This document shows positions 1 through 32,973 of a DNA stretch of 64,000 nt, piece after piece. Position 1 is the first letter of the stretch, and each line of letters starts with the position of its first letter. The notes beneath the pieces are model-generated. The model was not told the DNA's origin. It saw nothing but the letters and a program-made list of their open reading frames with translations, and did no database searches. This DNA comes from a virus (taxonomy: Duplodnaviria; Heunggongvirae; Uroviricota; Caudoviricetes), in IMG/VR virus record IMGVR_UViG_3300028888_000051, positions 1-64,000 of that record; one strand, given 5' to 3'. The translations under genes and the position numbers were made by a program.

Positions 1-13
1 TGGAAATAATGTA

Positions 14-913
14 ATGGAATCAATAAATAGTATTTCTAAAATTAATGGTTTTACTGAACATATGCTTTTGGTAGATGATACAAATACATTAACTTTTGAT
101 GAAATTAACACAAAAGAATATATAAATTTTGCTAAAAACTTACTTGATAAAAAAGAAATTTTTGGTCCATATTATAATGAAAATTTTGTAAAAATCGATG
201 AACCTTCTTTTTTACAAGCTTTAAATCCATTAAAAGATAATACAGATGAACATCCAACTAAATCTGGAGTAGTTTGTCAAAATTTCTTATTTGAATGTGA
301 TTATTTGTCAAGAGAAGAACAAGAAGAACTTATTAAGCCAATTGAAAAATATACATATCGTATAGTTTGGTCAGGTAGTAGATCTTACCATATAGTAATT
401 AGAATTAATAAACCTGTATCAAGTATTTCATTTAAAAAAATTTGGTATTATCTTCAATATAAATTAGGTTTAGATGGGGCTGATGAACAATCAAGTCTTC
501 CATCAAAATATACAAGGGTACCAGATCAAATTAATCCAAAGACAGGTAATATGCAAGAATTATATAGTGAAAACAAATATATATTTGATTTAGATGAAAT
601 TCTTGAAAATATGCCAAAACTTAAAGATGAACTAAAACGACCTACACAATATAAAGGTAAAGTTGATATGAAAGCACTTGAACGTCATATAAAAAGACTT
701 AATTTTCAAGAAGGTAATCGTTTTGAAGCATGTCAAAAATTATCTCCAGTATTAATTTCTCAAGTAACTATGGAAGAATTAATTAAAATGATTCCAATAA
801 AATTGGAAAAAGATCATATTAATGTATTAAGAGCAAAATATTATTATTTTGAAAAATATAAAGATTTATTAACAGTACAAGAAGAAACACCATTAGATGA
901 AAGTGAAGAATAA
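14..913 (+). CDS. AEP-superfamily (RepB-like) primase
   Basis: FECD (DxD/ExD-like motif), SGSRSYH (sxH motif) and downstream D..YTRVP, typical of phage AEP primase-polymerases. Confidence 0.65.
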   Translation: MESINSISKINGFTEHMLLVDDTNTLTFDEINTKEYINFAKNLLDKKEIFGPYYNENFVKIDEPSFLQALNPLKDNTDEHPTKSGVVCQNFLFECDYLSREEQEELIKPIEKYTYRIVWSGSRSYHIVIRINKPVSSISFKKIWYYLQYKLGLDGADEQSSLPSKYTRVPDQINPKTGNMQELYSENKYIFDLDEILENMPKLKDELKRPTQYKGKVDMKALERHIKRLNFQEGNRFEACQKLSPVLISQVTMEELIKMIPIKLEKDHINVLRAKYYYFEKYKDLLTVQEETPLDESEE

Positions 914-915
914 AA

Positions 916-1545
916 ATGACAGAGCAAAATAAAGATTGGACAGGAAATACTAGTATATATGCATGTAATCATAGAGGAAAAGAAGAAAATGTTGCACAAG
1001 GAGATTTTTATGCAACACATCCTGAATCTATACAATTATTTCTTAAAAAATGTCAAGAACGTAATTTAATATTACCTGAATATATATGGGAACCGGCTGC
1101 TGGGCAAGGTCATATATCTAAAGAACTACAAAAAGTTGGTCATAATGTACTTTCAACTGATTTATATGATAGAGGATTCGGTTTAAGTAATATAGACTTT
1201 CTTAAAATCACACGTGATAATATAGATGAGTCTTTTAAACCATATTTAAAGTGCATATTTACTAATCCTCCGTATGCATTATCTAGTACTTTTGTAGAAA
1301 AAGCATTAGAATTATTAGATGATGATGGTATTTGTATTATGTTTCTTAAAACTACATTTCTTGAAACAAAAGGACGTGTTAATTTATTTAAAAAACATAA
1401 GCTTAAGTATGTTTGGCAATATGTAAATAGACAAGGTTGTGGTAAAAATGGAGGTACATTTAAAAATGGTGGAGCAGCTGCTTATGCTATGTTTATTTGG
1501 GATAAATCTTATAATGGTTTACCAGAATTAGATTGGATAGAATAA
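916..1545 (+). CDS. DNA amino-methyltransferase (probably N6-adenine)
   Basis: DFYAT, WEPAAGQG (SAM-binding motif I) and TNPPY (motif IV). Confidence 0.85.
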   Translation: MTEQNKDWTGNTSIYACNHRGKEENVAQGDFYATHPESIQLFLKKCQERNLILPEYIWEPAAGQGHISKELQKVGHNVLSTDLYDRGFGLSNIDFLKITRDNIDESFKPYLKCIFTNPPYALSSTFVEKALELLDDDGICIMFLKTTFLETKGRVNLFKKHKLKYVWQYVNRQGCGKNGGTFKNGGAAAYAMFIWDKSYNGLPELDWIE

Positions 1546-1558
1546 AGGAATTTAGAAG

Positions 1559-2047
1559 ATGCAAAAAGGATGTTTTAGATATTATTTTCGTATAGGTGAA
1601 TTTGGATTTAAAATACCTAGATATAATAGTTATAATGCAAATCCTTTTCTTGGATTTTTATGTGGTATAATTATGAATATTCTTGAAAGAAAACGTTATA
1701 AATATTATGTAGAATATAAACCTATAAAACAATGGGGAAGAAAATGGAAATATAATTGGATGAGACCAATATTATGTCCTTGTTATTTTAGCTTTTTTGG
1801 ATTAATTAATATATATAAACATTTACCTACAAAATTGGATTGGGATGATCTTTGTACATTTGGTGAAAGAGTTAAAGATATAGATGAACAATATTTGCAA
1901 GAACATACTGCTTATTTAATTATTAATGATATTAAACCAGAAAATTTTAGATGTGATAAAAATGGAAATTTATACTGTATTGATTATGGAGATTTTGAAA
2001 TAGGAAATATGAGAAGAACTGGAGTTTTAAATATTGATTATAAATAA
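1559..2047 (+). CDS. Minimal protein-kinase-like fold protein
   Basis: FKIP (VAIK-like), NDIKPEN catalytic loop, CIDYG (DFG-like). Confidence 0.6.
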   Translation: MQKGCFRYYFRIGEFGFKIPRYNSYNANPFLGFLCGIIMNILERKRYKYYVEYKPIKQWGRKWKYNWMRPILCPCYFSFFGLINIYKHLPTKLDWDDLCTFGERVKDIDEQYLQEHTAYLIINDIKPENFRCDKNGNLYCIDYGDFEIGNMRRTGVLNIDYK

Positions 2048-2124
2048 TGGAAAAATAATTTATTAAAAAATTTATTTATTCATATTCTATATAATAGTTT
2101 TAATTTTTTAAAGGATTAATATAA

Positions 2125-2649
2125 ATGCGATATACAAAATTTGGAAATGTAAATTCACCAAAAGGAAATAGAAAAGAAGATACAGGTTTTGATTGTTTTG
2201 TACCAAATGATTGGAATGAAGGTAAACCATATATTTTAAGACTTAATGAACAAGTTAATATCCCTTTGAATTTGAGCACAAAATTTAATTCTAATAAGAC
2301 TTTGATTATGTTTAATAAATCAGGAGTTTCTACCAAAAAAGGTACTGTACAAGGAGCTTGTGTAATTGATCCTGCTTATCGTGGAATTATTCATTGTAAT
2401 TTGCTTAAAGCAGCTAAAGGTAAAGAAGACATAAAAGTAAATTATAGAGGATTTTTTGGTTTTCTTGGTGGATTGTTAGGAATTAAACAAAATGCTACGG
2501 TGATTAAACCAGGTGAAAAAATTACACAAGGTATTATTTTTAAAGTATCTGATGAAGAATTAGAAGAGATTTCTAATAAAGAATATGAAAAAGGACCAAA
2601 AACTAAACGCGGTGCTAAAGGTTTTGGAGAAGGTACAGGTCAGAAGTAA
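2125..2649 (+). CDS. dut: Trimeric dUTPase with an insertion between motifs III and IV
   Basis: TGFDC, NKSG, VIDPAYRG, GEKITQ and RGAKGFGEGTG correspond to motifs I-V. Confidence 0.9.
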   Translation: MRYTKFGNVNSPKGNRKEDTGFDCFVPNDWNEGKPYILRLNEQVNIPLNLSTKFNSNKTLIMFNKSGVSTKKGTVQGACVIDPAYRGIIHCNLLKAAKGKEDIKVNYRGFFGFLGGLLGIKQNATVIKPGEKITQGIIFKVSDEELEEISNKEYEKGPKTKRGAKGFGEGTGQK

Positions 2650-2655
2650 TTAAAT

Positions 2656-2719
2656 AAGCCGTTTATTATTACAAAATGGTTTTAAACGGCTTTACTTTTA
2701 TTAAATTTTATACTATAAT
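2656..2719 (+). promoter_or_regulatory. Hairpin overlapping a sigma70-type promoter
   Basis: Inverted repeat aagccgttta (2656-2665)/taaacggctt (2683-2692); TTTACT (2691)-17 bp-TATAAT (2714). Confidence 0.75.
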
Positions 2720-2753
2720 ATAAATATAAAGTTGAGAATAAAGGTATAGGAAA

Positions 2754-3392
2754 ATGCAAAAAGTAATTGGAATAACAGGTTTAAAAGGTTCTGGAAAAGA
2801 TACTATAGCTAGTTTTATTTGTAAACATGATTCTAGTTTTAAAACAATAGCATTTGCTGATAAAGTAAAAGATATTTGTGCTGTTATGTTTGATTGGAAT
2901 CGTGATATGTTAAGTGGAAGATTTCCAGAATCAAGAATTTGGCGTGAGCAACCTGATATATTTTGGAGTAAAGAATTTGATACAGAATTTACTCCAAGAA
3001 AAGCGTTAACTATGGTTGGAACAGACCTTATAAAAAATACCTTTTTAAGAAATATCTGGGATATAACTGTTAAAAAAACTATTTTAGATAATCCTAATAC
3101 CAATTATATAATTACTGATTGTAGATTCCTTAATGAAATTAATATGATACATAGTATTAATGGTATTATTGTACAAGTTGAACGTGGTAATAGACCAGAT
3201 TGGTGGACAATAGCTGAAGATTATAATTTTGGTAAACTAGGAATAGACTTACCAAAAGAACTTGAAAATATTCATCCATCAGAAAGAGATTGGATTGGAA
3301 TTAATAATCCAGTACATACATTTTATAATAATAGTTCATTAGAAACACTAGAACATGAAGTCATTAAATATTTTGGATTGAATAATGAGTAA
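2754..3392 (+). CDS. Deoxynucleoside monophosphate kinase (T4 gp1-like)
   Basis: GLKGSGKDT P-loop, AFAD..K, TPRKAL...GTD, ITDCRF.NE, HPSE. Confidence 0.9.
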   Translation: MQKVIGITGLKGSGKDTIASFICKHDSSFKTIAFADKVKDICAVMFDWNRDMLSGRFPESRIWREQPDIFWSKEFDTEFTPRKALTMVGTDLIKNTFLRNIWDITVKKTILDNPNTNYIITDCRFLNEINMIHSINGIIVQVERGNRPDWWTIAEDYNFGKLGIDLPKELENIHPSERDWIGINNPVHTFYNNSSLETLEHEVIKYFGLNNE

Positions 3393-3963
3393 AATTGATT
3401 TTTTGACATATTTAAATAACATTAATTTTGGGCATTTGCACTATTATATACGTTCTACAGAAATTTGTTATTTTCCATTTTTAAATGAAGAAATAGACAT
3501 GGTTACTTTAAGTACTGAATTAAATAAATTTGGAGAATACTTAAATCATGCTGAATCTTTTGCTGAACGTAAATATATGGCCGAAAATAATATAAAATGG
3601 ATTAATTTTACTCAACAACTCAAAAAAGAAAGAAAATATACATGTGAAATAAGTAGATTTACTTATAATGATATTAAACAACTTAATCATGATATATTTG
3701 GTTTAAAATATGATGAAACTTGGATAAATAATTGGTTAGTTATACATCATAAAGATGATTTACAAGAATATGAATGTTATGATAAAGATAAGCTTTTAGT
3801 TTTAAATAGAGCAGTTCATTTAATAAAGCATAGATATAACAATTTAATTAAACATTTACCATCTCTAGAAACAAACTATAAACTTTGGTTTGAATTAGGA
3901 TGTTTAATTCCTGACAGAAATGGTGAATATCCATGGCGTAATGTAATAAAGAAAAATGTTTAA
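3385..3963 (+). CDS. Hypothetical protein
   Basis: 192-aa ORF overlapping both neighbours. Confidence 0.6.
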   Translation: MSKIDFLTYLNNINFGHLHYYIRSTEICYFPFLNEEIDMVTLSTELNKFGEYLNHAESFAERKYMAENNIKWINFTQQLKKERKYTCEISRFTYNDIKQLNHDIFGLKYDETWINNWLVIHHKDDLQEYECYDKDKLLVLNRAVHLIKHRYNNLIKHLPSLETNYKLWFELGCLIPDRNGEYPWRNVIKKNV

Positions 3964-4924
3964 TACATATGTAAGTAAAGTTGGAAAATTAGAAGCTCCA
4001 TTTGAATTAAAACTTGGAACAGAAGCTTTATTAACTTATGAATATTTTAATGATAAAATATTAGCTAAAAATACAACTCTTCCGGCTATATTTAAGAATA
4101 CTATTCTTCTTTTAGATAAATTAAATCACCATAAAACAGAACATACTTTTTATGATTTTCCTTATGATGTAAATAAAAACGATTTTTGTATGAATGTTTT
4201 AATGGCTTTTTCTGGAAGTTTAGATTCTATTTATCAGACAATACATTTAAAAAATTTTGGTTATGATGTTACACTTTTTTATTTAAATTATAATACAGCA
4301 CTAGATTATAAAAGGCTAGATATAATTAAAAATTTAGCAAATACATTAAATTTACCTCTAGTTATATGTAATGTAACATTAAATAATAAACTGTTTGTTG
4401 AAAATAGTTTTAATAATTTATTTATGTATGCATTAATGTTAGATTGCTGTCAGGCTAATAATATTTATTATATTTCAAGTGGAGATAGTTTAGTAAACAT
4501 TAGTCCTAAAAAAACCATCTCTAGTTTAAAACAAGTAACAGAAACATTTTTTAATGAATTATATTTAAAATTTAATTTTGATTTTATTCCTGCAGTAAAA
4601 GTAAATAAAATTGATAAATTGTTGAAATTAAATAGTTTAAACTTAGATGAATATTTTACAGATTGTATAAACACAGATAAATTTTTAAAGATAAAACGTA
4701 ATAAGTTACTTACAAAATTAAATATTGATTTACCTGAAAATAATTGTGGTGTATGTCCTAAATGTGTATTTTATAATTTATTAAAATATTATTACTTAAA
4801 TGAAAACTTACCACAAAATTATATAGATTTTTGTTGGAATAAAGTTGTTACTGAAAATACATATGATTTATTTAATAAAAATCTTCCACTTGCCTTACGT
4901 ATTGATAATCTTTCCAAATGTTAG
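3956..4924 (+). CDS. QueC-like PP-loop ATPase
   Basis: AFSGSLDS (variant of SGGxDS) and C-terminal C...CGVCPKC Zn motif. Confidence 0.6.
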   Translation: MFNTYVSKVGKLEAPFELKLGTEALLTYEYFNDKILAKNTTLPAIFKNTILLLDKLNHHKTEHTFYDFPYDVNKNDFCMNVLMAFSGSLDSIYQTIHLKNFGYDVTLFYLNYNTALDYKRLDIIKNLANTLNLPLVICNVTLNNKLFVENSFNNLFMYALMLDCCQANNIYYISSGDSLVNISPKKTISSLKQVTETFFNELYLKFNFDFIPAVKVNKIDKLLKLNSLNLDEYFTDCINTDKFLKIKRNKLLTKLNIDLPENNCGVCPKCVFYNLLKYYYLNENLPQNYIDFCWNKVVTENTYDLFNKNLPLALRIDNLSKC

Positions 4925-5004
4925 TAACAGAAAAATAATTTAGTAGACTTCATATATAGTAAAATTCTATAATATTATTTAATGATATATGGAGTAAATT
5001 ATCA

Positions 5005-7344
5005 ATGCCATTACAACCAAAAAAATTTAATTTTCATAAAAATAGTATAAAAAATAAATCAGTTATGAATAAAGATTTTGATTTAGATATACAAAAAGAT
5101 AAAGATGGTAATATAATATTTGATTTTGATTATTTAATATCTGATACAGTTAAAGGAACAGAATGTAGAGATGAGCCACATGATAATGATATGTGGGAAA
5201 TTATAAAAAATAATACTAAAGAAATAAATAAATATGAAGAATATCTATTTATAAAATATTGGTATAATGCTCTAAATTATGCATTAGAAAAATTAAATGA
5301 TAAAGATGATATATATAATACTATAAACTATTATATACCATTGTTTTTTAAAATTTTAGATAGAAAAAAATCTCCATTTAAAACATTTAAAATTTTTAAT
5401 TTATTTTCTAAAAAAGAAGTAATTGATCAAATTACAAAATTAAATTTTATTCAAAAAGCGTTAAAAAATAGTATTAAAGAAAGTGGACTTCCAACTATTG
5501 ATGAAATGCTTTTAGTAAAATCAAAAGAAATAAGAACAATATATTTAGAGTGTATTCAAAAAATAATCATAGATTGTGAAAATTTTTTAAATAAAATTGA
5601 TGAAAATAAATTGAAAAAAAGTTTTTATAGTGAAAATTTTAAAACATATATAGATTTAATAAATTTACCTAAAGATTCAACTTTTTATGATTGGGTATTA
5701 CTTAATTTTTATTCATCTTTAGGCATGTTTCAAAATGATTTACCAGAACTAAAAGCTTGTCTTAAAGATAATTATCCATTAATATCTGAAGTAAGAGAAT
5801 ATAAAGATTTTCTTGTAAATATTTCAGATTCATGTTTTTCATTAAAAAGTGCATATTTAGATCATATTTTTATAAAAAGATGTTTTACTAAATATAATTC
5901 TAAAGAAGAATTAGTTAGTGAAATATTACATAAAGTAAAAAAATCAAATTTGTCTGCAAAAGATTTTACATATGTCCCTGAATATTCATATATAAAAAAT
6001 ATACTTAGATATGCTCTTAAAGAAAAAAAGAAAGGTGTAAATATATTATTATATGGTAAACCAGGTACAGGTAAAACTGAATTAGCAAAAACATTAATAA
6101 AAGAACTAAATGCTGATGGTTATGAAATAATTGATACTAAACGAACAAAAATTGTTGGAAATAACTTAGATACAGATTTAAAAAATATAGATTTTGCTAC
6201 AGCAAAACAAGTATTACAAAATACAGAAAATTCAATAATTTTATATGATGAAGCTGAAGATTTTTTTAGAACACCTAATTTAAAAAATATGCCAACTAAA
6301 ACTGGTATAAATTATTTATTAGAAGATAATATCAATCCAGTTATTTGGACAGCAAATAGCCTTTCAGATTTAGAAAATTCATTTATCAGAAGATTTAGTT
6401 ATGTATGTAATGTTGAATATATGCCTAAATCAATTTATAAAAAAACATTTAATAAATTAGTAAAGGAATATCATATAAAAGCTAATGATGCATTATTTGA
6501 ATTTTGTTTTTTAAATAAAGTATCTATTGGTATTATTAAAAAAGCTTTTGAAAATAGTAATTTATCAAAAAACAGTAAAATAGAAAATGTTTTTGAAGAT
6601 ATAAAAAATACCATTAAGACATATACTACTATTAAAGAAAATGTTAGATCTAATCGTTTAGTAAAATTTAATTCTAAACTATTAAATACTTCTGATGATT
6701 TAGACTATTTTTGTAAAAAAATTGTCAATCTAAAAAAGTTAAATTTTAGTTTACTGCTTTATGGTGTATCAGGATCAGGTAAATCATATTATGCAGAATA
6801 CTTGGCAGAACAATTAGGAATGCCTATATTAAAGAAAAAAGCTTCTGATTTAGAGAGTATGTGGGTTGGTGAAACAGAAAAAAACATAGCTATGGCTTTT
6901 AGTGAGGCTAAAAAAGAAAAAGCTATTTTAGTTATCGATGAAGGAGATCATTTTATTTCAGATAGAATGAAGCATCGAATGAGTTGGGAAACAAGTCGAA
7001 CAGAAGAAATGTTGCAACAAATAGAAGCACATGATTTACCTGTAATATTTACAACAAATTTAATAGAAAATATTGATAAAGCTGCTATGAGACGTTTCAC
7101 ATATAAAACTAAATTTGATTATTTAACAAACGAACAAGTTAAAGTTGCATGGAAAGATTATTTTCCAAAAGCAAAATTACCAGATAAATTATATTTGTCT
7201 AAATTATGTCCTGGTGATTTCGCAACAGTCAGAAAAAAAGCAGAATTTGAAGGATATATTGATAATACTGATTTATTATATAAAAAATTAGAAGAAGAAA
7301 TGCAAAATAAAAAAGAAATGGAATATTCTTCAATTAAACTTTGA
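5005..7344 (+). CDS. Tandem AAA+ ATPase
   Basis: Two Walker A (GKPGTGKT, GVSGSGKS), two Walker B (LYDEAE, VIDEGD), Arg fingers (RRF). Confidence 0.9.
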   Translation: MPLQPKKFNFHKNSIKNKSVMNKDFDLDIQKDKDGNIIFDFDYLISDTVKGTECRDEPHDNDMWEIIKNNTKEINKYEEYLFIKYWYNALNYALEKLNDKDDIYNTINYYIPLFFKILDRKKSPFKTFKIFNLFSKKEVIDQITKLNFIQKALKNSIKESGLPTIDEMLLVKSKEIRTIYLECIQKIIIDCENFLNKIDENKLKKSFYSENFKTYIDLINLPKDSTFYDWVLLNFYSSLGMFQNDLPELKACLKDNYPLISEVREYKDFLVNISDSCFSLKSAYLDHIFIKRCFTKYNSKEELVSEILHKVKKSNLSAKDFTYVPEYSYIKNILRYALKEKKKGVNILLYGKPGTGKTELAKTLIKELNADGYEIIDTKRTKIVGNNLDTDLKNIDFATAKQVLQNTENSIILYDEAEDFFRTPNLKNMPTKTGINYLLEDNINPVIWTANSLSDLENSFIRRFSYVCNVEYMPKSIYKKTFNKLVKEYHIKANDALFEFCFLNKVSIGIIKKAFENSNLSKNSKIENVFEDIKNTIKTYTTIKENVRSNRLVKFNSKLLNTSDDLDYFCKKIVNLKKLNFSLLLYGVSGSGKSYYAEYLAEQLGMPILKKKASDLESMWVGETEKNIAMAFSEAKKEKAILVIDEGDHFISDRMKHRMSWETSRTEEMLQQIEAHDLPVIFTTNLIENIDKAAMRRFTYKTKFDYLTNEQVKVAWKDYFPKAKLPDKLYLSKLCPGDFATVRKKAEFEGYIDNTDLLYKKLEEEMQNKKEMEYSSIKL

Positions 7345-7398
7345 ATTATTTTGAATTCTATAAATAGATGTAATATAAATATTAAGGTGTATAATAAA

Positions 7399-8274
7399 AT
7401 GAATAGTTATGATAAACAATATTTAAATTTAGTTGATGAAATAATTAATGAAGGTGTAGTTAATCCATGCCGCACAGGTAACAATACATATGTTAAACTA
7501 AATAAAGTGTTAACACATGATTTAAATGAAGGATTTCCAATTTGTACTTTTAGACAAATGCCTTTTAAAGGAGCCTGTGGAGAATTAGAATGTTTTTTAC
7601 ATGGATATACCAATAAAGAACAATATGAAAATGCAAAATGTATGTACTGGAAAGAATGGTGTAGACCAGATCAAGTTCCATATGGTGATAAAGAAAATAT
7701 GTTAAAAAATAAGGACTTAGGTCCAATATATGGTTGGCAATGGAAGTTTGGAGGAGCAGAATATATAGATTGTAATACGGATTATACAGGTCAAGGTTCA
7801 GATCAAATTAAATATCTTATTGATACATTAAAAAAGAATAAATACGATAGACGTTTGGTTGTAAGTGCTTGGAATTTACATGATCAAAATAAAATGGCAT
7901 TGCCTCCATGTGTATATGCATTTCAATTAAATTATCTTAATGATAGATTACATATGACTGTTACACAAAGAAGTTGTGACTTAATTTTGGGTGTACCAAC
8001 AGATATTGTATTTTATAGTATATTATTACAATTAATTTGTAATACAGTTAAAATGACTTCTGGAACTATTACTTTTAATCTTTGTAATTGTCATGTATAT
8101 GATAATCATATAGAAATATATAAACAGCATAGGGATGAATTTTATAATACTAATTTTGTTTTACCTACACTGAATTTAGATACAGAAGCAGATGTATTTA
8201 ATTTTACACATGATATGGCAAAATTAGATAATTATGAACATGGTCCAAAAGTTAATTTTCCAATAGCTGTTTAA
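7399..8274 (+). CDS. thyA: Thymidylate synthase-fold enzyme, possibly dCMP-specific
   Basis: RTG, LGPIYGWQW, RRLVVSAWN, LPPC, QRSCD, HVYDNH; start moved to ATG 7399; H147V and N177D substitutions (E. coli numbering). Confidence 0.9.
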   Translation: MNSYDKQYLNLVDEIINEGVVNPCRTGNNTYVKLNKVLTHDLNEGFPICTFRQMPFKGACGELECFLHGYTNKEQYENAKCMYWKEWCRPDQVPYGDKENMLKNKDLGPIYGWQWKFGGAEYIDCNTDYTGQGSDQIKYLIDTLKKNKYDRRLVVSAWNLHDQNKMALPPCVYAFQLNYLNDRLHMTVTQRSCDLILGVPTDIVFYSILLQLICNTVKMTSGTITFNLCNCHVYDNHIEIYKQHRDEFYNTNFVLPTLNLDTEADVFNFTHDMAKLDNYEHGPKVNFPIAV

Positions 8275-8295
8275 TAATAAATTAAAGGAACCATC

Positions 8296-9048
8296 ATGAA
8301 TGAAATAGAAATAAAATGCAAACCTTTTTATATAAAAATATATAAACGTTGTAATTCGAATACAATTTCTTTTAGTAATAGTTGTAAATTTACAAAATCT
8401 AGACCTAAACAAGAATCTGATTATTTTTTATATAAATTTACTAAATATTATGAAATTATTCCTACTGATTTAGAAAAATCAACTTTTATAAAAAAACATG
8501 AATGGGACGAATCAAATGATTCACATGGTTTTGCTCAATTTTACAAAGAATTAACAAATACTGATGATTATCCTTCAAATGTATATAGATATGAATTAGT
8601 AGATAATTATTATAATTTTGTAAATGTATATAAAACTTGTAATTGGAATGATAATAATAAATATCCATATACTATAAGTTTTGCAGATCATATTTATATT
8701 GTAAAATTACAAGATGGAATACTTTTAACAGATTATACTAAAGCAGAACTAAAAGAACAAGAAAATAAAAGAAAGCAAGAAGCTGATTATAAAGTTATTT
8801 CTAGTTTATTAAAAACTTCTATAGATAATATACTAATTAAATATGGTATGGAATTAAGAGATTCTGGTATTCGCTTTAAAAATAGTACTGAATATTATAA
8901 ATTTGTTAAATTAAGTCTAAATAGAGTAATAGAAGAATTACAACAAAATGGATATAATGTAAAATTAAATCCGCGTGTAAGATCTATAAAATATTCATCT
9001 TTAATTGTCGATAAAAAAGATCTAAAATTAAAAAATGAAGATAATTAA
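8296..9048 (+). CDS. Hypothetical protein
   Basis: 250-aa ORF with AAGGA RBS. Confidence 0.6.
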   Translation: MNEIEIKCKPFYIKIYKRCNSNTISFSNSCKFTKSRPKQESDYFLYKFTKYYEIIPTDLEKSTFIKKHEWDESNDSHGFAQFYKELTNTDDYPSNVYRYELVDNYYNFVNVYKTCNWNDNNKYPYTISFADHIYIVKLQDGILLTDYTKAELKEQENKRKQEADYKVISSLLKTSIDNILIKYGMELRDSGIRFKNSTEYYKFVKLSLNRVIEELQQNGYNVKLNPRVRSIKYSSLIVDKKDLKLKNEDN

Positions 9049-9219
9049 TGACTTAGAGAAATATCGATAAAAATGTAGTAAAAAATCTTTTTAAAAAGCT
9101 ATTGTGAGAATTAACAAAATGCAAATATTTCTAAGAATAACACAAAATTATGTCAAGTTCTATACATTACTTTCAGTAATTTTCATGGTAAATTTCTAAA
9201 CAAAAAATGGACAAAAAGG

Positions 9220-9744
9220 ATGGAAAAATATAATATTATATTAGAAGAAACTTATCTCGATTATCCCTCTCCAGATGGAAATGCTGTTATAATTTATATG
9301 ATTGGTTGTGAACATCATTGTCCAGGTTGTCATAGTCCGTTATTACAACAAAGTTTAGAATATACAGAATCTAATCAGGAAATTTTAGAAAAAATACAAA
9401 ACTATGCACATCGAGCAGATACAAATAAATTAGTATTTCTTGGTGGTGATCCGATATATTCAAAAAATTTAGCGTTAACAATATTTCTTGTTAATAATTT
9501 AAAAAATGATTTTGATATTTGTATTTTTACAGGCTATACAATAGATTATATTAAAAATATTGGACTAAAAGGAGTAAAATATTGGAAATGTGGAAAATTT
9601 GATCAAACTAAATTAAGACAATCTAAAAAAACCGATAATGAATATATTTTGGCTTCGCCTAATCAAGATTTTTATGATGGTGAATATAATAAATTATCAA
9701 ATAATGGTATACTTAATTTTAACAACTTAGAAAAAGGAAATTGA
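9220..9744 (+). CDS. nrdG: Anaerobic ribonucleotide reductase activase
   Basis: GCEHHCPGCHS radical-SAM motif, FLGGDP, adjacent to nrdD. Confidence 0.9.
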   Translation: MEKYNIILEETYLDYPSPDGNAVIIYMIGCEHHCPGCHSPLLQQSLEYTESNQEILEKIQNYAHRADTNKLVFLGGDPIYSKNLALTIFLVNNLKNDFDICIFTGYTIDYIKNIGLKGVKYWKCGKFDQTKLRQSKKTDNEYILASPNQDFYDGEYNKLSNNGILNFNNLEKGN

Positions 9745-9746
9745 AT

Positions 9747-11504
9747 ATGGTTAATGATAAGAAACCTATTAAAGTTACATATCCTAGTTTTAATGTAAAT
9801 GAAGAAAATCCATATCAAGATGAAATGGATAAATGGGTTGATATTACGTTAGCAGAAGCTGGTACTACAAGAACACGTAAAAATATTATAGAATGTTTAA
9901 CAAAATCTCTTAAATCAAAATATGGTATTGTTAACAAAGATGAATTGAAAGAAAAAGTTAACAAATTCATGGATTTACATGGTTTGGGTGAAGAAAATTT
10001 TGATCCGTTAGCTGTTATTTCAAAACTTACATTTGGTAACTTACAAACAGTTAATGATATTTCTATTGATGCTAATGCCAATAAAAGTTCAACAAACACA
10101 GAAGGTATTTGTGCAGAAGCTATGTTACCATTTAAAAAATTAGTAGGATATGATTATTTATATCAAACATTAAAAGAATTGTATGGCAAAAATGAAGCTA
10201 AAAAATGTTGTGCTTCTATGTATGATATGTCTTTGTTTTTGCATGATGCAACAAATATCTTAAAGCCTTATTGTTATTGTATCGATGCTTCTAAGTTAGT
10301 TACAGAAGGACGTAATTTTGGGCAAGTACATTCTGGTCCAGCACACCGTATTTCTACATATATTACTACTCTCGGTGATACAATAAGGGAAATTAGTTTT
10401 AATATTGCTGGTGCGTGTGCTATTGGTACATTTTTTGAAGATATAGCTAATTTAGCTATTTATCGTGAGCGTATCACACTTGATGATCTAAAGAATGATA
10501 GAAAAGTAAGAAAAGCTATTAGTAATTATATGCAACAGTTTATTTATACAGTTAATCATTATTCTAGATCTGCAGTAGAAAGTCCATTTACTAATGTATC
10601 ATTATTTGATAGAGAAAAGTTACGTGGTTTATTATCTGATGATAATTATGGTTGGTATTTTCCTAAGAAGGCAGCTGTAGTAGAAGACAATGGATTAGAA
10701 AATACAAAAGAAGCCTTTAAAGAATTTGTATTAGATTACATAGAAGAATTACAAGAAATATATTTAGATGTATTTGATGCTGGTGATCCTTTAAGAAATG
10801 GTTTGCAATTTCCATTTCCCGTAACTACTATTAATTTTAGTACAGAAAAAGATGAAAATGGAAAAAATACATTAACACTAAAAGGTTCTGACAATAAATT
10901 ATTAGAATATATTTCACACAAAGATATATCAAAATATAACATTTATTGCTCAAGTGGTACAAAAGTAGCTTCTTGTTGTAGATTACTTTCTGATTCAGAA
11001 ATGCTCGGTCTCGGTTCTGGGGTTAATTCATTTGGTGGTTCTCAAGTATCTTTAGGCTCACATCGTGTTGTCACAATAGATTTTTCAAGATGTGCATATG
11101 AAGCAGAATCTTATGACGACTTTAAGCATATTATTACAGATCGTGTTGAAGAAATGACAAAAATTTTAAAAGCACATCGTGTGTTAATTCATAAATTAGA
11201 AAAATGTAAAACTCAACCGTGGATTTCAAATGGTTTTATAAATATGTCACATATGTTTTCTACCTACGGTTGTGCTGGATACGTTGAAGCTGATGAAATT
11301 CTCAAATTTAAGTTTAATCACAGCGATTTTGACTACATGAAAGATTTTTTAGTATATTTTAATCAAGAATGTGCTAGAATCGGTGAAAGAGAAAAAATGA
11401 TTTGGAATTTAGAAGCTGTCCCATTCGAAGGAGGTTCACCAAAAGCAGCTAAAGCAAATAAAATATTATTTGCTGATGAAAATGGTGATTATGTAATAGA
11501 TTAA
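9747..11504 (+). CDS. nrdD: Class III ribonucleotide reductase, N-terminal part, no ATP cone evident
   Basis: HDA...PYC, SPFTN, FPFPVTT, SCCRL, GSHRVVTI, EAVPFE; lacks the glycyl-radical C-terminus. Confidence 0.9.
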   Translation: MVNDKKPIKVTYPSFNVNEENPYQDEMDKWVDITLAEAGTTRTRKNIIECLTKSLKSKYGIVNKDELKEKVNKFMDLHGLGEENFDPLAVISKLTFGNLQTVNDISIDANANKSSTNTEGICAEAMLPFKKLVGYDYLYQTLKELYGKNEAKKCCASMYDMSLFLHDATNILKPYCYCIDASKLVTEGRNFGQVHSGPAHRISTYITTLGDTIREISFNIAGACAIGTFFEDIANLAIYRERITLDDLKNDRKVRKAISNYMQQFIYTVNHYSRSAVESPFTNVSLFDREKLRGLLSDDNYGWYFPKKAAVVEDNGLENTKEAFKEFVLDYIEELQEIYLDVFDAGDPLRNGLQFPFPVTTINFSTEKDENGKNTLTLKGSDNKLLEYISHKDISKYNIYCSSGTKVASCCRLLSDSEMLGLGSGVNSFGGSQVSLGSHRVVTIDFSRCAYEAESYDDFKHIITDRVEEMTKILKAHRVLIHKLEKCKTQPWISNGFINMSHMFSTYGCAGYVEADEILKFKFNHSDFDYMKDFLVYFNQECARIGEREKMIWNLEAVPFEGGSPKAAKANKILFADENGDYVID

Positions 11505-11531
11505 TTAATTTTTTTTAAGGATAATATAAAA

Positions 11532-11966
11532 ATGCGTAAATTTAAAATGCCAAACTTACTTGCTAATCAATGGTGTTCACTTTGGAAAGATTATACTCTT
11601 GCTGAAAAAATGAAAAGAGATGGTGAAATAAATGCCTTGATGACTGGTGGTTCAATTATACATAACAATATTGATGGAAATATAACTGCAACACAAGCAA
11701 AGAATCTTATTCAAAAAGCTGTTGAAAATAATGCTGAACATTTTGCTTTAAATGCATGTTATATTGAATGTCAAGAATGTGGTCATGTTCATAAAGGAAA
11801 ATTAGATAAATGTCCAGAATGTGGATCTGAAAAATTAAACTATTATTCAAGAATCATTGGTTATTTTTCTAAAATAAATAATTGGTCAAAAGATAGACGT
11901 GAATACGATTGGCCAAATCGTAAATTTACTAGTCAAGATTCTATAAATGAACAATTGAAAAATTAA
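11532..11966 (+). CDS. nrdD: Class III ribonucleotide reductase, C-terminal part (Zn ribbon and glycyl radical loop)
   Basis: TGGSI.H, CQECG...CPECG, SRIIGYF; own AAGGA RBS. Confidence 0.9.
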   Translation: MRKFKMPNLLANQWCSLWKDYTLAEKMKRDGEINALMTGGSIIHNNIDGNITATQAKNLIQKAVENNAEHFALNACYIECQECGHVHKGKLDKCPECGSEKLNYYSRIIGYFSKINNWSKDRREYDWPNRKFTSQDSINEQLKN

Positions 11967-11984
11967 AAATTATTTAAAAAACTG

Positions 11985-12030
11985 AATCCTCCGATAGTTC
12001 TATATATACAGGATAGATTATCGGAGGATT
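11985..12030 (+). promoter_or_regulatory. RBS-sequestering hairpin with a putative late promoter in its loop
   Basis: 12-bp inverted repeat aatcctccgata/tatcggaggatt; right arm contains GGAGG before ATG 12035; GTTCTATA at 11997 in the loop. Confidence 0.75.
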
Positions 12031-12034
12031 TTTT

Positions 12035-13024
12035 ATGTCTAGTAAAATTTATAAAATAACGAATTTAATAAATGGTAAAATATACATCGGATATACTAAA
12101 AAATCATTAGAAGAAAGATTAAAGCAGCATTCTAAATATAAGACAGATGCTCATCGTAATATGCCTATTGTTATTGCTATTAAAAAATACGGTATTGAAA
12201 ATTTTAAGATAGAATTAATAGAAGAATCTCAAGATGATGATTATATTCATTATGAAAGAGAAGTATTTTGGATAAAAGAATTAAAGAGTCAAAATCCAAA
12301 GATAGGTTATAATATAGCAAATGGTGGAGATGGTGGAGATACTTTATCTCATCATCCGGATTTAGATAATATTAAAAACATTATGAAAAAAGCTTCAAAA
12401 CATAGAAAAGGATGGCATCACTCAGAAGAGGTTAAAAAACAATTGAGTAAACGTTTTAAAGGAGTAATAAGATATATTCCAAATGAACAACAAAAGTTAA
12501 AAATGAGTGAAAGAATGAGAGGTGAAAATAATCCAAATTTTGGAAAAAAAATGAGTGAAGAAAGAAAAGAGTTTATGCATGAAGTAAATAGTAATAATTA
12601 TTATTGGAATAATGGTATTAAAAATAGACGAGCTAAAGAATGTCCTGGAGAAGGTTGGATAAGAGGTATGCTTGTTACAGAAGAATCTAAAAAATTAAGA
12701 TCGAAAGTACATAAAGGTCAACCATCCGCATTTAAAGGTAAAAAACACACAGAAGAAGCAAAGGAGAAACTAAGTAAATCTCATAAAGGATTATTTAATG
12801 GTGAAAAAAATCCAGCTGCTAAAACTGTAGAAGTTATATCACCAAGCGGAGAAAGATTTATTATAAAAGGAACAATGAAAAAATTTTGTGAAGAACATAA
12901 TATTTCCTTTATAATATATAGAAGATATAAAAATAAAGGACCTTATAAAGTAAGTAAATATATAGCTAAAGATAATCAATTGGCTAAAAATACAGATGGC
13001 TGGACCTTTAATTCTTTAGATTGA
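12035..13024 (+). CDS. Free-standing GIY-YIG homing endonuclease with NUMOD3 repeats
   Basis: KIYKITN..NGKIYIG, R..QH, E..WI, GYN...GG; HSEEVKKQLS and HTEEAKEKLS repeats. Confidence 0.92.
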   Translation: MSSKIYKITNLINGKIYIGYTKKSLEERLKQHSKYKTDAHRNMPIVIAIKKYGIENFKIELIEESQDDDYIHYEREVFWIKELKSQNPKIGYNIANGGDGGDTLSHHPDLDNIKNIMKKASKHRKGWHHSEEVKKQLSKRFKGVIRYIPNEQQKLKMSERMRGENNPNFGKKMSEERKEFMHEVNSNNYYWNNGIKNRRAKECPGEGWIRGMLVTEESKKLRSKVHKGQPSAFKGKKHTEEAKEKLSKSHKGLFNGEKNPAAKTVEVISPSGERFIIKGTMKKFCEEHNISFIIYRRYKNKGPYKVSKYIAKDNQLAKNTDGWTFNSLD

Positions 13025-16757: not shown

Positions 16758-18137
16758 CTATTGTTCTATGGTCATTTTATGAGCATTTTGTATAAAATTT
16801 ACAACACGTTTACTAATTATTGAATCACGTGAATATAAATTAGTTACTATATGCATATCATCTTTATTTCTTGTTCTACTCAAAGCTACATATAATTGTC
16901 CATGAGCAAAAGCTCCTTTACCCATATCAATTATTACTTTATCTAATGTTTTTCCTTGAGACTTATGAATAGTTATGGCATAACCAAGCTGTAAAGGAAA
17001 TTGTTTAAATTCTCCTGTTTCTTTTTCAACAATTTGCTTTTTACCTTTTTCATCAATTTCAATTTCATATTCTCTGTTTTTCCAAGTTTCTTTAGTTACA
17101 ACCACAATATTGCCATTATTAAGCATTTTTACAAAAATAGAATCTTTTTTTAATGCAACAATTATTCCTGTTGAACCATTAATCCATTCTGGAGGATTAT
17201 TTTTATTAAACATTACTAAAGCGCCCTCTTTTAATATTAATTCTTTATCTGCCGGAAAAGTAGAGCTATTAGTAAAAGATCCAGATATTTCAGCTTTATA
17301 TTTTTTTGAAGTACCTTTTAACGTTTTTAATTTTGTTTGATTAATTTCTTCTGCTTTATTACGATAAGGAGTAATAGTTACTGCTGTATCTAAAATATCT
17401 TTATCTACAATTTTACAACTATTAAAATATTTTATTACATTTTGAATATCAGAATTTAAGCGTAATTTAGTAAGATTATCTAATAAGTCATCATTTAATT
17501 GGCGATAAACATAACTAAATTCTATGAATTTAAAATTTCCTTCATGATAAGCATATGAATCAAAAAAATATGGATCATCTGTACCATATTCATCTTTGAA
17601 TATCTTTAAAGCTCCGGCTTTTATAACCGGTGGTAATTGATAAATATCACCTATTAGAAGTACTTGAAGTCCACCAAAAGCTTTAGCATTATTTCTAATA
17701 ACTTTTGTTAATTTGTTTATAGCATCTAACATATCAGGTCTAACCATAGATACTTCATCTATAATTAAAACTTCAGCACGTCTAATTACATCTAATATTT
17801 TTTTACGATTTGTTTTGAATAGTGTATTTTCTGCTAAAAAATCACTTATTGGTAATTTAAAAAGTGAATGAATAGTTTGTCCACCAATATTCATCGCAGC
17901 GACTGCAGTAGGTGAACAAATAATCATACTTTTGGTAAGATTACTTTTAAGATACATAATAAATGAAGATTTACCTGTACCAGCTTGACCTTGTATAAAT
18001 AAATTATCATTTGTATTTTGAATTATATCAAAAGCTTGTTGTTGTTCTTTTGATAAAATTTGATCAGATATATTTATTTGTTTATCTATAATTTGTATTT
18101 CATCTTGTTTTTGGGTCTTTTGAATCTTTTTTCCCAT
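16758..18137 (-). CDS. PIF1-family SF1B DNA helicase
   Basis: GQAGTGKS, PTAVAA, TIHSLF, DEVSM, GDIYQLPPV, YRQ, AITIHKSQG.T, YVALSR. Confidence 0.93.
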   Translation of the reverse strand: MGKKIQKTQKQDEIQIIDKQINISDQILSKEQQQAFDIIQNTNDNLFIQGQAGTGKSSFIMYLKSNLTKSMIICSPTAVAAMNIGGQTIHSLFKLPISDFLAENTLFKTNRKKILDVIRRAEVLIIDEVSMVRPDMLDAINKLTKVIRNNAKAFGGLQVLLIGDIYQLPPVIKAGALKIFKDEYGTDDPYFFDSYAYHEGNFKFIEFSYVYRQLNDDLLDNLTKLRLNSDIQNVIKYFNSCKIVDKDILDTAVTITPYRNKAEEINQTKLKTLKGTSKKYKAEISGSFTNSSTFPADKELILKEGALVMFNKNNPPEWINGSTGIIVALKKDSIFVKMLNNGNIVVVTKETWKNREYEIEIDEKGKKQIVEKETGEFKQFPLQLGYAITIHKSQGKTLDKVIIDMGKGAFAHGQLYVALSRTRNKDDMHIVTNLYSRDSIISKRVVNFIQNAHKMTIEQ

Positions 18138-29887: not shown

Positions 29888-30239
29888 TATTTCCTTTCAA
29901 AATTTCTTGTATTAAACCTGTTTGAATAGCTAATACTGTTTTAGCACAATTACCATCTAATAATTTAAAAAGCGTATCATATTGATTCTTTGTTTCATCA
30001 TCAGCAGCTCTCCAAAGTTTACGATATATAAAACTATATAATTCATCAAGGTCTAATTTTTCAATAAAATCGTTAATACAATCTTTAATGTTATAATCTT
30101 TTATACAACAACCTAAATTAATTTCTATATCGCGTATATCACGTATAGCCTTAAATATATTATACTTTAATTTTGATATATCTTCGAGAGTTTGTACCTC
30201 GTAATCTTCATAATAATCACGATTATAGTCATAATTCAT
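29871..30239 (-). CDS. Y.TLFKL module protein
   Basis: ETKNQYDTLFKLLDGNCAKTVL; AAGGAG RBS before MNYD. Confidence 0.6.
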   Translation of the reverse strand: MNYDYNRDYYEDYEVQTLEDISKLKYNIFKAIRDIRDIEINLGCCIKDYNIKDCINDFIEKLDLDELYSFIYRKLWRAADDETKNQYDTLFKLLDGNCAKTVLAIQTGLIQEILKGNNDASR

Positions 30240-32187
30240 GGTAATTAAACTCCTTATAAGCTTCATCTAAAGATAAAATTTTGATTCCTAATTGTAAAGC
30301 CTTTTTCATTTTAGTTGAAGTACTGTTTTTATCTTTAACAATTAAACAATTTGTATTTTTTGTCCAATTATCTCCAGCTTGACCTCCATTATCTATAATA
30401 TGCTGAATAAGTCCTTTATCACGTATACCTGAAAAGCAAACAACATAATCTTGATAAATATTTGAATTTATATTATTTTCTTCTGTTTTGAATTTAACAC
30501 CATAATCAAAAAGTTCCATGTGTGTTTTACGCATATACCAAGCATTTCTATATTCCATATATTGACTAATTCTAGATTCACCCAAACCTGGAATTGTTCT
30601 AAGTTCATCTTCTGTACAATAACAGCTAAATTCACCAAATTTATCCCAAATAGGTTGAAGAACACGTTCACCCATATCAGGACCAAATGCCCCACAAGCT
30701 ACCGCAAATTTGACTTCCGTAATAGTTGTTTTTTTGGCTTCTAGACTATTTTCTATCTTTTTTCCATTCTTCCCTATTACTTTTTCAATTATGCCTTTGT
30801 GAAGTGAAAAAATGTCTTCTGAATGATATATTGTGTTTTTGTTTAATAAGGTTTCATAAATTTTTACACAATTACCATAACCAAGCATATCTATTTCTAA
30901 TTTTTGACCAAGATATTCTAAAGCTCTTATTTCTGCTTCTTTACGATAATCATCATAATCTGTTGACCAAATATATTGTAAATCTACACCATTTATTTTT
31001 GTAGCACATTGTGGCAAATTATATTGTTCAGATGGTACAAGTACTTCTTCTAATTTAGGAATAACCAAACCAGCTCGCTTAAATTTAATTTTTGCACCTA
31101 TTCCACATTTAGATTTTATGACATTTTCATAATTATGAGCCGTTATATTTGTAATTAAAGCACCTGCGACTTCTATTGGTTCAATTTCAAGTACAGGAGT
31201 AAATATACCCCAACGACTAATTTGCCAATTAATGTTTTTTACAACAGATTCAGCAACATTATCATAAATACCTATTTTAAATTTACGACTACACTTTGGA
31301 TTTATAGTTCCTCCAACAAATCCAGTATCACTATAATCATTCTGAGTAATAATTATACCATCTAATTCGTAATCAGAAAATTTTAAACGAGTTTTTACTA
31401 TTTCTAAACAATTTTCATCAGTTAAAATTTCACTAGAGCATTCTTGATAATAAGGTACAGTAAAGCCTAAATGTTCTAATTGTTTAAAAGCTTTTGCTGT
31501 TCCTTGATTATTAGATGTCCAATAAGCAACAAATTTACAATTATTAAAAATATTAGCATCTGTATCTTTTTTATTTAAAGCACCTGCTATTGTATTACGA
31601 CCATTTTTTTGTTTTTTACCAGTTTTTAATTCAATTTCATTAAGTATAGATTCAATTCTATTTTTCTTAAAAAGAAGTTCGCCCCGAATAATTAATTTAT
31701 TTTTGTAATCAATTGTTTGTGGTATATTAGGAACCTGACTTATGTGACGCATAATATCTTTTCCTTTTATACCATGACCACGAGTGGCCGCTATACTTAA
31801 TTTTCCATTAATATATGTAAGAATAACGGAACAACCGTCTAATTTATCTGAAAATACAAAATTTTTATGTTTACCAATCCATTTTTCTAAATCACCTTCT
31901 TTTAATTCTTCCATACTACCCATTGGAATCTCATGAATAATATCTTGACCATATCCGGTATTTTCTGAAGTTAATTCATTAAAAAATGAATCTTCTGGCC
32001 ATTTTTCTTTAGCACAAAAATAAAGTAAATCATATAATTGATCGTCTATGAATAGACTAGGAAGGGTAATATTAAATTCATTTTCTATAACAGGATATTC
32101 ATCTTCTTTCAAACAATATATTTCACCCTTAGAATAAAATTCATTACATTTTTTCAAAATATGCTTAATCTGGGTATTCATTTGCAT
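30229..32187 (-). CDS. ligA: NAD-dependent DNA ligase
   Basis: KLDG, TRG.G..G.D, RGE, RN..AG, DGII, OB-fold, HhH, C-terminal BRCT; start moved to MQMN. Confidence 0.93.
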   Translation of the reverse strand: MQMNTQIKHILKKCNEFYSKGEIYCLKEDEYPVIENEFNITLPSLFIDDQLYDLLYFCAKEKWPEDSFFNELTSENTGYGQDIIHEIPMGSMEELKEGDLEKWIGKHKNFVFSDKLDGCSVILTYINGKLSIAATRGHGIKGKDIMRHISQVPNIPQTIDYKNKLIIRGELLFKKNRIESILNEIELKTGKKQKNGRNTIAGALNKKDTDANIFNNCKFVAYWTSNNQGTAKAFKQLEHLGFTVPYYQECSSEILTDENCLEIVKTRLKFSDYELDGIIITQNDYSDTGFVGGTINPKCSRKFKIGIYDNVAESVVKNINWQISRWGIFTPVLEIEPIEVAGALITNITAHNYENVIKSKCGIGAKIKFKRAGLVIPKLEEVLVPSEQYNLPQCATKINGVDLQYIWSTDYDDYRKEAEIRALEYLGQKLEIDMLGYGNCVKIYETLLNKNTIYHSEDIFSLHKGIIEKVIGKNGKKIENSLEAKKTTITEVKFAVACGAFGPDMGERVLQPIWDKFGEFSCYCTEDELRTIPGLGESRISQYMEYRNAWYMRKTHMELFDYGVKFKTEENNINSNIYQDYVVCFSGIRDKGLIQHIIDNGGQAGDNWTKNTNCLIVKDKNSTSTKMKKALQLGIKILSLDEAYKEFNYHEL

Positions 32188-32482
32188 TAAATATCTCCTT
32201 TTTATACTTTTCAACCATCGCCATAAATTTCCAATATTTTTTTTCATCATATTTAAAATTTTGTTTATATATACATAATACTTCAAATTCATTTAGTATT
32301 AATTTTGAACCAAGTGTATAATTTATATAATGGAAAAATTTACCAGTTCTGCAATCATATATAATTGCATTAATATAATTATCTGTATTTTTAGGCTGAG
32401 TAGAAAGAAAAATATAATCATAACCACTGTTTGTAGTTTTTATATATACATATTGTCTTGTTTTTTCTTTAACTATATTCAT
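32165..32482 (-). CDS. Hypothetical protein
   Basis: AAGGAG RBS and own promoter. Confidence 0.6.
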   Translation of the reverse strand: MNIVKEKTRQYVYIKTTNSGYDYIFLSTQPKNTDNYINAIIYDCRTGKFFHYINYTLGSKLILNEFEVLCIYKQNFKYDEKKYWKFMAMVEKYKKEIFNANEYPD

Positions 32483-32535: not shown

Positions 32536-32973
32536 TTATAAATTTAAATTAGTACATTTAACTCCAGCTTCTTTTAAAATAGATTGAGCAATATTTAAAT
32601 TATCTTTCCAATGTTCAGATATTTGATATTCATTTGGTATTGTGTAATATATAGCTTTTATACCACTTTGAATAATCATTGCTGCACAATGTGCACAAGG
32701 TGGTAAACCATAAATATACATTATACAATTAGATAAATCTTGTTTTGAACAAAGTATTGCGTTTTCTTCAGCATGTAAAGTAATTGCTCTTTTAAATTCT
32801 TTATCATTAAGCCTATCTTCTGTATCATTAATATTTTTAGGAAAGCCATTATAACCTGTTGAAATAATTTTATTTTCTTTATTTACAATTACCACACCTA
32901 TTTTTTTAGATGGATCTTTTGACCAAGTTGATACAAATTTAGCCATATTTATAAACCTAATATGCCATTTCAT
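32536..32973 (-). CDS. dCMP deaminase
   Basis: SKDPS.K.G, GYNG, HAEENA, PCAHC. Confidence 0.93.
   Translation of the reverse strand: MKWHIRFINMAKFVSTWSKDPSKKIGVVIVNKENKIISTGYNGFPKNINDTEDRLNDKEFKRAITLHAEENAILCSKQDLSNCIMYIYGLPPCAHCAAMIIQSGIKAIYYTIPNEYQISEHWKDNLNIAQSILKEAGVKCTNLNL

Follow-up and report, generated by a model that had tools for sequence, protein, structure and literature searches.

The open reading frame at 7399-8274 encodes a thymidylate synthase (TS) homolog, and the question raised by this locus is whether its product methylates dUMP or dCMP. The window analysed here is the first 64 kb (64,000 nucleotides) of a phage genome, a 227,383-bp IMG/VR record that is 95% complete by CheckV and has a G+C content of 26.6%. 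The first-pass annotation of the window had described the gene as a ThyA homolog that could make either 5-methyl-dCMP or 5-hydroxymethyl-dCMP. Our analysis indicates that 7399-8274 probably codes for a folate-dependent dCMP C5-methyltransferase, or 5-methyl-dCMP synthase, a prediction that derives from its active-site residues and from the genes that accompany it.

Both the reading frame and the short residue strings quoted for it were recovered exactly, in coordinates and in residues. A ribosome-binding site (AAGGTG) precedes the gene by about 10 nt, and the encoded protein, of 291 aa, matches the entire Pfam PF00303 (Thymidylat_synt) profile (positions 1-266 of 266; E 5e-70; 236 bits, cut-off 24.3). 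It also scores 181 bits against NCBIfam TIGR03284, the thymidylate synthase equivalog (cut-off 108), and falls below the respective cut-offs of all seven other TS equivalog models. Since TIGR03284 is passed, annotation pipelines will name the protein an ordinary thymidylate synthase. Its AlphaFold model (pLDDT 95.5) has TM-scores of 0.90-0.91 to the human, Pneumocystis and Babesia TS structures, and the TS catalytic set is complete in the protein and in its clade (Cys146, Arg21, Glu58, Tyr94, Arg126', Arg127', Arg166, Ser167, Asp169, His207 and Tyr209). Identity to E. coli ThyA, which serves here as the frame for residue numbering, is only 29-31%, and identity to the nearest bacterial and archaeal TS is about 40%.

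The residues that surround the base depart from the canonical enzyme at two positions. Asp202 (GAT at 8002-8004) aligns to Asn177 of E. coli ThyA, and Val172 (GTA at 7912-7914), which adjoins the catalytic Cys171 (TGT at 7909-7911), aligns to His147; an HMMER alignment to the Babesia bovis DHFR-TS structures 3i3r and 3nrr gave the same motif correspondence as the E. coli alignment. The first-pass annotation had reported the Asp and the loss of His at these same codons in an otherwise canonical ThyA, and our alignment agrees on each point: the full TS fold and catalytic set are present, and 10 of the 12 residues within 6 A of C5 of dUMP, as listed in PMC13326640, are identical to those of E. 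coli ThyA, with H147V and N177D as the only differences. Thus Asn177, which reads O4/N3 of uracil in the canonical dUMP-specific TS (EC 2.1.1.45), and His147, likewise expected there, are both replaced in this protein. Glu58, Trp80 and Tyr94 are kept, and the C-terminus reads FPIAV, the canonical IAV tail of TS. Agarwalla et al. reportedly described in 1997 a His199Ala/Asn229Asp double mutant that was a better dCMP methylase. In PMC8670742, N177D is described as turning the preference of TS from dUMP to dCMP, and the MetaGPA analysis of that work found positions 177 and 147 to be the best separators of TS genes on cytosine-modified and unmodified phage contigs. By these residues, the 7399-8274 protein resembles a naturally occurring form of the engineered N177D dCMP methylase.

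Other positions bear on the group that would be added to C5. Bulky hydrophobic Leu143 is associated with methyl products and Asp or Glu at 143 with hydroxymethyl or hydroxy products, and D169N is the mark of flavin-dependent 5-hydroxy-dCMP synthases (PMC13326640). The protein has Leu168 at the position of Leu143, where all 19 clade members have Leu and none has an acidic residue, and Asp194 at the position of Asp169, with no D169N. Enzymes of the MilA type, which act on ribo-CMP, carry Ala167 and Lys126' (PMC5175136), and here the residues are of the deoxyribose type, Ser167 and Arg126'.

The two substitutions are shared by a whole group of proteins. A search of 5.8 billion proteins with the 7399-8274 protein as query returned a tight group at 51-87% identity (P0002-P0018), followed by a gap down to ordinary TS at about 40%; in the exhaustive search of representatives, a single 50%-identity cluster representative lay near the query and canonical TS came next. 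Asp177 is present in all 19 clade members (metagenomic proteins), with position 147 occupied by Val, Leu, Met or Ile; the combination of Asp177 and non-His147 recurs in five IMG/VR loci that are 50-62% identical. The next relatives, at about 40% identity, have Asn177 and His147, and so the pattern is not a matter of chance. The 221 sampled homologs used for comparison were picked as Asn177/His147, and Asn177 in 221 of 221 is therefore a matter of definition.

The maximum-likelihood tree groups the 19 proteins in a single clade (SH-aLRT 99) that is nested in the canonical ThyA radiation and lies far from the enzymes of phages Xp12 and PaMx74 and from T4 gp42. Asp177 requires at least two changes on this tree, with seven being the most parsimonious number. 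The tree was built by a "quick" method with the mixture model off, and the branches of T4 gp42 and of the Xp12 pair are long; reliable conclusions are therefore limited to the clade being monophyletic and distinct from gp42 and from Xp12/PaMx74. Other changes accompany the switch: T47F in 18 of 19 members (Tyr in the remaining one), D205N in 17 of 19, and loss of F176, which becomes Thr, Ala or Ser. Neighbouring phage TS genes with Asn177 and His147 likewise have I79Y and lack Phe at 176; these two features thus predate the switch and are not part of it. The gene appears to be derived from an ordinary phage ThyA. Megablast of window positions 5000-12000 against GenBank phages gave no match. 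When the protein was compared with phages by tblastn, identity reached at most 35% in the 40 listed records (of 4,073) and was below 60% in every record; the protein thus has no cultured close relative.

The genome encodes a broad set of nucleotide enzymes around this activity (Table 1). The first-pass annotation had advised looking for a second TS, and none was found: 7399-8274 is the only PF00303 gene in the whole genome, and ThyX had no match in it, at 95% completeness. The dUTPase-family gene and the gp1-type kinase lie on the same strand as the TS homolog, 4-5 kb upstream of it, and the deaminase, dihydrofolate reductase (DHFR) and SHMT genes are not adjacent to it but dispersed over the 227-kb genome. 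The DHFR and SHMT genes are both conserved in two near-complete relatives, and with the TS homolog they would make up a complete folate one-carbon cycle. The dCMP deaminase noted earlier in the window belongs to that family by both of its profile matches; it shares 31% identity with the Xp12 deaminase and matches the PBCV-1 dCMP/dCTP deaminase structure 7fh4 (4.5e-17). The PBCV-1 enzyme is also the closest structure to the 5mC deaminase described in a recent preprint, in which one linked deaminase, mSCD-B5, preferred 5mdCTP (bioRxiv 10.1101/2024.12.05.627091).

Table 1. Positions of the TS homolog and of the other nucleotide-metabolism genes in the phage genome
Feature	Position	Strand	Evidence or location
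Trimeric dUTPase-family dNTP pyrophosphatase (dUTPase and perhaps the dCTPase of the pathway as well)	2125..2649	+	PF00692 34.5 bits (cut-off 22); phrog_135 dUTPase 3.6e-14
T4 gp1-type deoxynucleoside monophosphate (dNMP) kinase	2754..3392	+	PF21448 DNMK 53.7 bits; phrog_139 9e-41
ThyA-family enzyme, predicted dCMP C5-methyltransferase (5-methyl-dCMP synthase)	7399..8274	+	PF00303, residue mapping, AlphaFold model
Probable NrdG activase, 174 aa	9220..9744	+	Position only: directly upstream of NrdD
NrdD in two ORFs (9741-11504 and 11532-11966)	9741..11966	+	PF13597 on the second ORF; the first by position and summed length (587 + 144 aa against 715-725 aa)
dCMP-deaminase-family enzyme that may convert 5-methyl-dC nucleotides to thymidine nucleotides	32536..32973	-	PF00383 68 bits; phrog_174 1e-41
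DHFR	174945-175400	+	Genome, outside the window
SHMT (serine hydroxymethyltransferase)	204585-205760	-	Genome, outside the window

A dCTPase had also been named as a gene to look for. None of the all-alpha type is recognisable, as searches of the whole genome for MazG, PRA-PH, dUTPase_2 and PF18909 (PF01503, PF03819, PF08761, PF18909) gave no match; for PF18909 none of the named genomes served as a positive control, but the relative G003 did give a match. The trimeric dUTPase-family protein is the only candidate left. Its best solved relatives, 4wrk and 4gv8, were deposited as dUTPase, all five dUTPase motifs are present when the sequence is read against their consensus, and it shares 56-66% identity with its counterparts at the same place in four relatives. 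BLASTP gave no alignment between this protein and the T4 dCTPase gp56, but gp56 is of the all-alpha dUTPase_2/PRA-PH type, and so the comparison says nothing on whether the trimeric protein hydrolyses dCTP. Searches for Tet/JBP dioxygenases and for C5 DNA methyltransferases found none, and there is thus no sign of post-replicative 5mC or 5hmC chemistry.

Gene order around the TS homolog is partly conserved. In four relatives from other samples, a dUTPase-family gene stands upstream of it and NrdG/NrdD downstream; the dNMP kinase is at its place in one of these four only (L012). The near-complete relatives G002 and G003 (98% and 93%) likewise have a single TS homolog with Asp177, no ThyX, and genes for DHFR, SHMT and the deaminase. 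Between the dUTPase-family gene and the TS homolog, this phage family has either a gp1-type dNMP kinase, as in the window, L012 (7935-8585) and G002, or an all-alpha PF18909 "dATP/dGTP diphosphohydrolase" protein, as in L009 (7851-8507), L010 (9004-9372), L013 (8869-9240) and G003, and the two never occur together in one genome among those compared. Further upstream, the relatives (L010 at 1-8322 and the upstream regions of L012 and L013) carry SHMT, ClpP, RecA, a GapR-like DNA-binding protein and a protein of about 1,200 aa, and L010 has besides these NifS/NifU-like genes, ribosomal protein S21, GrpE and a formate/nitrite transporter.

Several other genes were observed in the window. Upstream of the nucleotide block, 916-1545 encodes a 209-aa protein that matches PHROG 799 "DNA methyltransferase" (1.2e-46) and, weakly, Eco57I, and a faint Eco57I match is found at the equivalent place in L012. 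Two genes sit between the dNMP kinase and an AAA+ ATPase gene, upstream of the TS homolog: 3385-3963 encodes 192 aa with no Pfam or PHROG match and has a homolog in one of the four compared relatives (L010), and 3956-4924 encodes 322 aa with a weak similarity to QueC-like PP-loop ATPases (18 bits, below the cut-off) and has a homolog in none of the four. The AAA+ gene itself (5005-7344), directly upstream of the TS homolog, codes for a protein of 779 aa with two AAA+ ATPase domains. The window also contains a PIF1-like helicase (16758-18137), an NAD-dependent DNA ligase with a BRCT domain (30229-32292), which adjoins the deaminase gene here as in L009, and an M16 insulinase-type peptidase (33761-34990).

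Downstream of the TS homolog lie the genes of an anaerobic ribonucleotide reductase. The ORFs at the NrdG position in the relatives carry Radical_SAM/Fer4_12 domains. In the window NrdD appears to be divided into ORFs of 587 and 144 aa, whereas the relatives have a single ORF of 715-753 aa, and the second ORF matches the C-terminal end of PF13597 (profile positions 447-554 of 562). The gap between the two ORFs is 27 bp, and the second has an AAGGA ribosome-binding site of its own. An ORF for a GIY-YIG and NUMOD3 homing endonuclease (12035-13024) directly follows the split NrdD, and one relative has an intein in NrdD.

The reaction that we propose would proceed as in a TS, with dCMP in the place of dUMP. 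Cys171 would attack C6 of dCMP, the methylene of CH2-THF would be transferred to C5, and a hydride from the folate would leave a methyl group and dihydrofolate, which the phage DHFR and SHMT would recycle. Dihydrofolate is formed only by the reductive methyl reaction. A TS-family enzyme calls for DHFR only when it oxidises its folate, and the presence of a phage DHFR would accordingly fit a reductive methyl transfer. Given that Leu143, the C-terminal tail and Asp169 are kept and that DHFR and SHMT are encoded, the predicted product is narrowed to methyl over hydroxymethyl; of the two products first suggested, 5-methyl-dCMP is thus the one that the sequence supports, and the signatures of hydroxymethylation are absent. 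As for the flow of substrate, NrdD could supply dCTP, and the pyrophosphatase or host enzymes could yield dCMP. The gp1-type kinase and the host NDP kinase would then convert 5-methyl-dCMP to the triphosphate, from which 5-methylcytosine would enter DNA, and the deaminase would turn part of the 5-methyl-dC nucleotide pool into thymidine nucleotides. Such a route of methylation followed by deamination would explain how a phage with 73% A+T lives without a dUMP-specific thymidylate synthase of its own. Both uses, modified DNA through the dNMP kinase and dT through the deaminase, had been put forward in the first-pass annotation and are sound, but they restate a published model of the Xp12 type and their novelty was overstated. 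That pathway was proposed for Xp12, including the deaminase route to dT, and has experimental support in Xp12 and in metagenomic phages (bioRxiv 10.1101/2024.12.05.627091).

Several observations weigh against a dCMP methylase: the low identity to E. coli ThyA and the separate branch from the Xp12/PaMx74 enzymes, the dispersal of the deaminase, DHFR and SHMT genes, the TIGR03284 score above its cut-off, and the lack of any recognisable all-alpha dCTPase, an enzyme that known C-replacing systems carry. The last of these would also suit a different reading, in which 7399-8274 encodes a thymidylate synthase that still works on dUMP or a methylase for both dUMP and dCMP, Asp177 and Val147 are tolerated or broaden the specificity, and the deaminase provides dUMP as it does in T4. 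The canonical fold, the ten unchanged active-site residues and the score above the TIGR03284 cut-off are all compatible with this, and a sole TS in a very T-rich genome, with DHFR, SHMT, a dUTPase-family enzyme and a dCMP deaminase, is the classical set for dTMP. Nevertheless, we consider this reading unlikely. The whole clade has Asp177 against the Asn of the 221 homologs chosen as Asn177/His147, and, according to PMC8670742, N177D switches the preference to dCMP and Asp177 with non-His147 marks C-modified contigs. Moreover, the Xp12 enzyme and five of the seven metagenomic Asp177 phage homologs that were tested made 5mdC in vivo (bioRxiv 10.1101/2024.12.05.627091). Within the preferred assignment as a dCMP methylase, the main role of the enzyme might still be to open a route to dT by methylation first, or it might retain activity on dUMP.

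The same Asp177 is found in enzymes with other products. The statement that T4 dCMP hydroxymethylase has Asp at position 177 agrees with our alignment, and that enzyme also has a non-His residue after the catalytic Cys and is partnered, like the one studied here, by a gp1-type kinase, so that hydroxymethylation of dCMP, with 5-hydroxymethylcytosine (possibly further decorated) in the DNA, has to be weighed. It is improbable, because the clade keeps Leu143 where hydroxymethylases have Asp or Glu (PMC13326640) and T4 gp42 itself has Asp, because the C-terminal tail that gp42 lacks is retained and gp42 lies far away on the tree, and because the DHFR and SHMT set fits a reaction that produces dihydrofolate, with no Tet/JBP gene found. 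Asp177 likewise occurs in RB69 gp48, which carries out flavin-dependent 5-hydroxylation, and in MilA-type enzymes, which hydroxymethylate ribo-CMP. Yet D169N is absent and residue 143 is not acidic, contrary to the 5-hydroxy-dCMP synthases, and Ser and Arg stand in place of the Ala167 and Lys126 of the MilA type, which makes either of these chemistries highly improbable.

A broader proposal can be made for the phage family as a whole, although we regard it as speculative and rather doubtful in its full extent. In this proposal, an A+T-rich family with genomes of roughly 230 kb would have given up dUMP-based thymidylate synthesis and would make all of its own thymidine by methylation of dCMP and subsequent deamination, with one ThyA-derived enzyme and the phage DHFR and SHMT. 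Asn177Asp would have been gained independently of Xp12, and either the trimeric dUTPase-family enzyme would clear dCTP in place of an all-alpha MazG/PRA-PH enzyme, or there would be no such step and ordinary C would be kept in the DNA.

Since Xp12, dCMP methylases have been known in nature; description of the 177/147 signature followed in 2021 and validation of metagenomic Asp177 homologs in 2024. The concept is thus already published and the gain from this locus is incremental. What seems to be new, judging from the alignments and the tree, is a separate ThyA lineage with the same Asp177 switch as Xp12 and PaMx74. This clade would join the known dCMP methylases as an independent lineage and suggests that Asn177Asp arose more than once within ThyA. 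Its active site predicts 5-methylcytosine in the nucleotide pool of the phage, as opposed to what an annotation as ordinary TS would imply, and 5mC, if present as predicted, would affect the behaviour of the DNA towards restriction enzymes, in bisulfite, EM-seq and nanopore sequencing, and towards host defences. The clade also allows the two-residue specificity rule to be tested cleanly in a natural TS scaffold that is otherwise canonical, and the deaminase of the window may be 5mC-selective, a type of enzyme that methylation sequencing now employs.

Among known systems, the dCMP C5-methyltransferases (5mdCMP synthases, EC 2.1.1.54) of Xanthomonas phage Xp12 (MT664984, 45326-46195) and Pseudomonas phage PaMx74 (gp52) are those that the locus most resembles in its active site: Asp177, a residue other than His next to the catalytic Cys, and nothing acidic at 143. 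Like these phages, the one studied here encodes a dCMP-deaminase-family enzyme and DHFR and no other TS, which holds in G002 and G003 too, and its predicted product is likewise 5-methyl-dCMP, with dT arising by deamination. However, the residue after the catalytic Cys is Pro in the Xp12 and PaMx74 enzymes and Val in the window protein, which keeps the IAV tail, lacks a 4-residue insert before the catalytic Cys, and is not an ortholog of theirs but stands on a separate, strongly supported branch. Because of this separation from the validated enzymes, function is transferred here by active-site signature and not by orthology. The genomic arrangement is also different, since Xp12 and PaMx74 have a cassette of PRA-PH, TS, deaminase and DHFR, whereas in the window phage the partners are scattered and there is no pyrophosphohydrolase of the PRA-PH/MazG type. 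PaMx74 gp53 and the Xp12 neighbour match PRA-PH and T4 gp56 matches dUTPase_2, each beside its TS homolog.

With the engineered N177D (E. coli) and N229D (L. casei) enzymes the protein shares a canonical TS scaffold with Asn changed to Asp, to which the loss of His147 is added; unlike those mutants, it is a natural variant, fixed in its clade, with the co-changes T47F, D205N and loss of Phe176. T4 gp42 has in common with it Asp177, the catalytic Cys, Glu58, Arg166, Ser167, Asp169, His207, Tyr209 and the gp1-type kinase partner, but gp42 differs by Asp at the Leu143 position, by the missing C-terminal tail and by a very long branch, and T4 has in addition a separate TS, td, and the all-alpha dCTPase gp56. 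The 5-hydroxy-dCMP synthases RB69 gp48 and DLP3 gp80 carry D169N and L143E, and the CMP hydroxymethylases MilA and BcmA have Ala and Lys in place of Ser167 and Arg126'; the window protein shows none of these changes. With canonical ThyA the protein shares its fold and most of the residues around C5, and it differs from it by the replacement of Asn177 and His147 throughout the clade.
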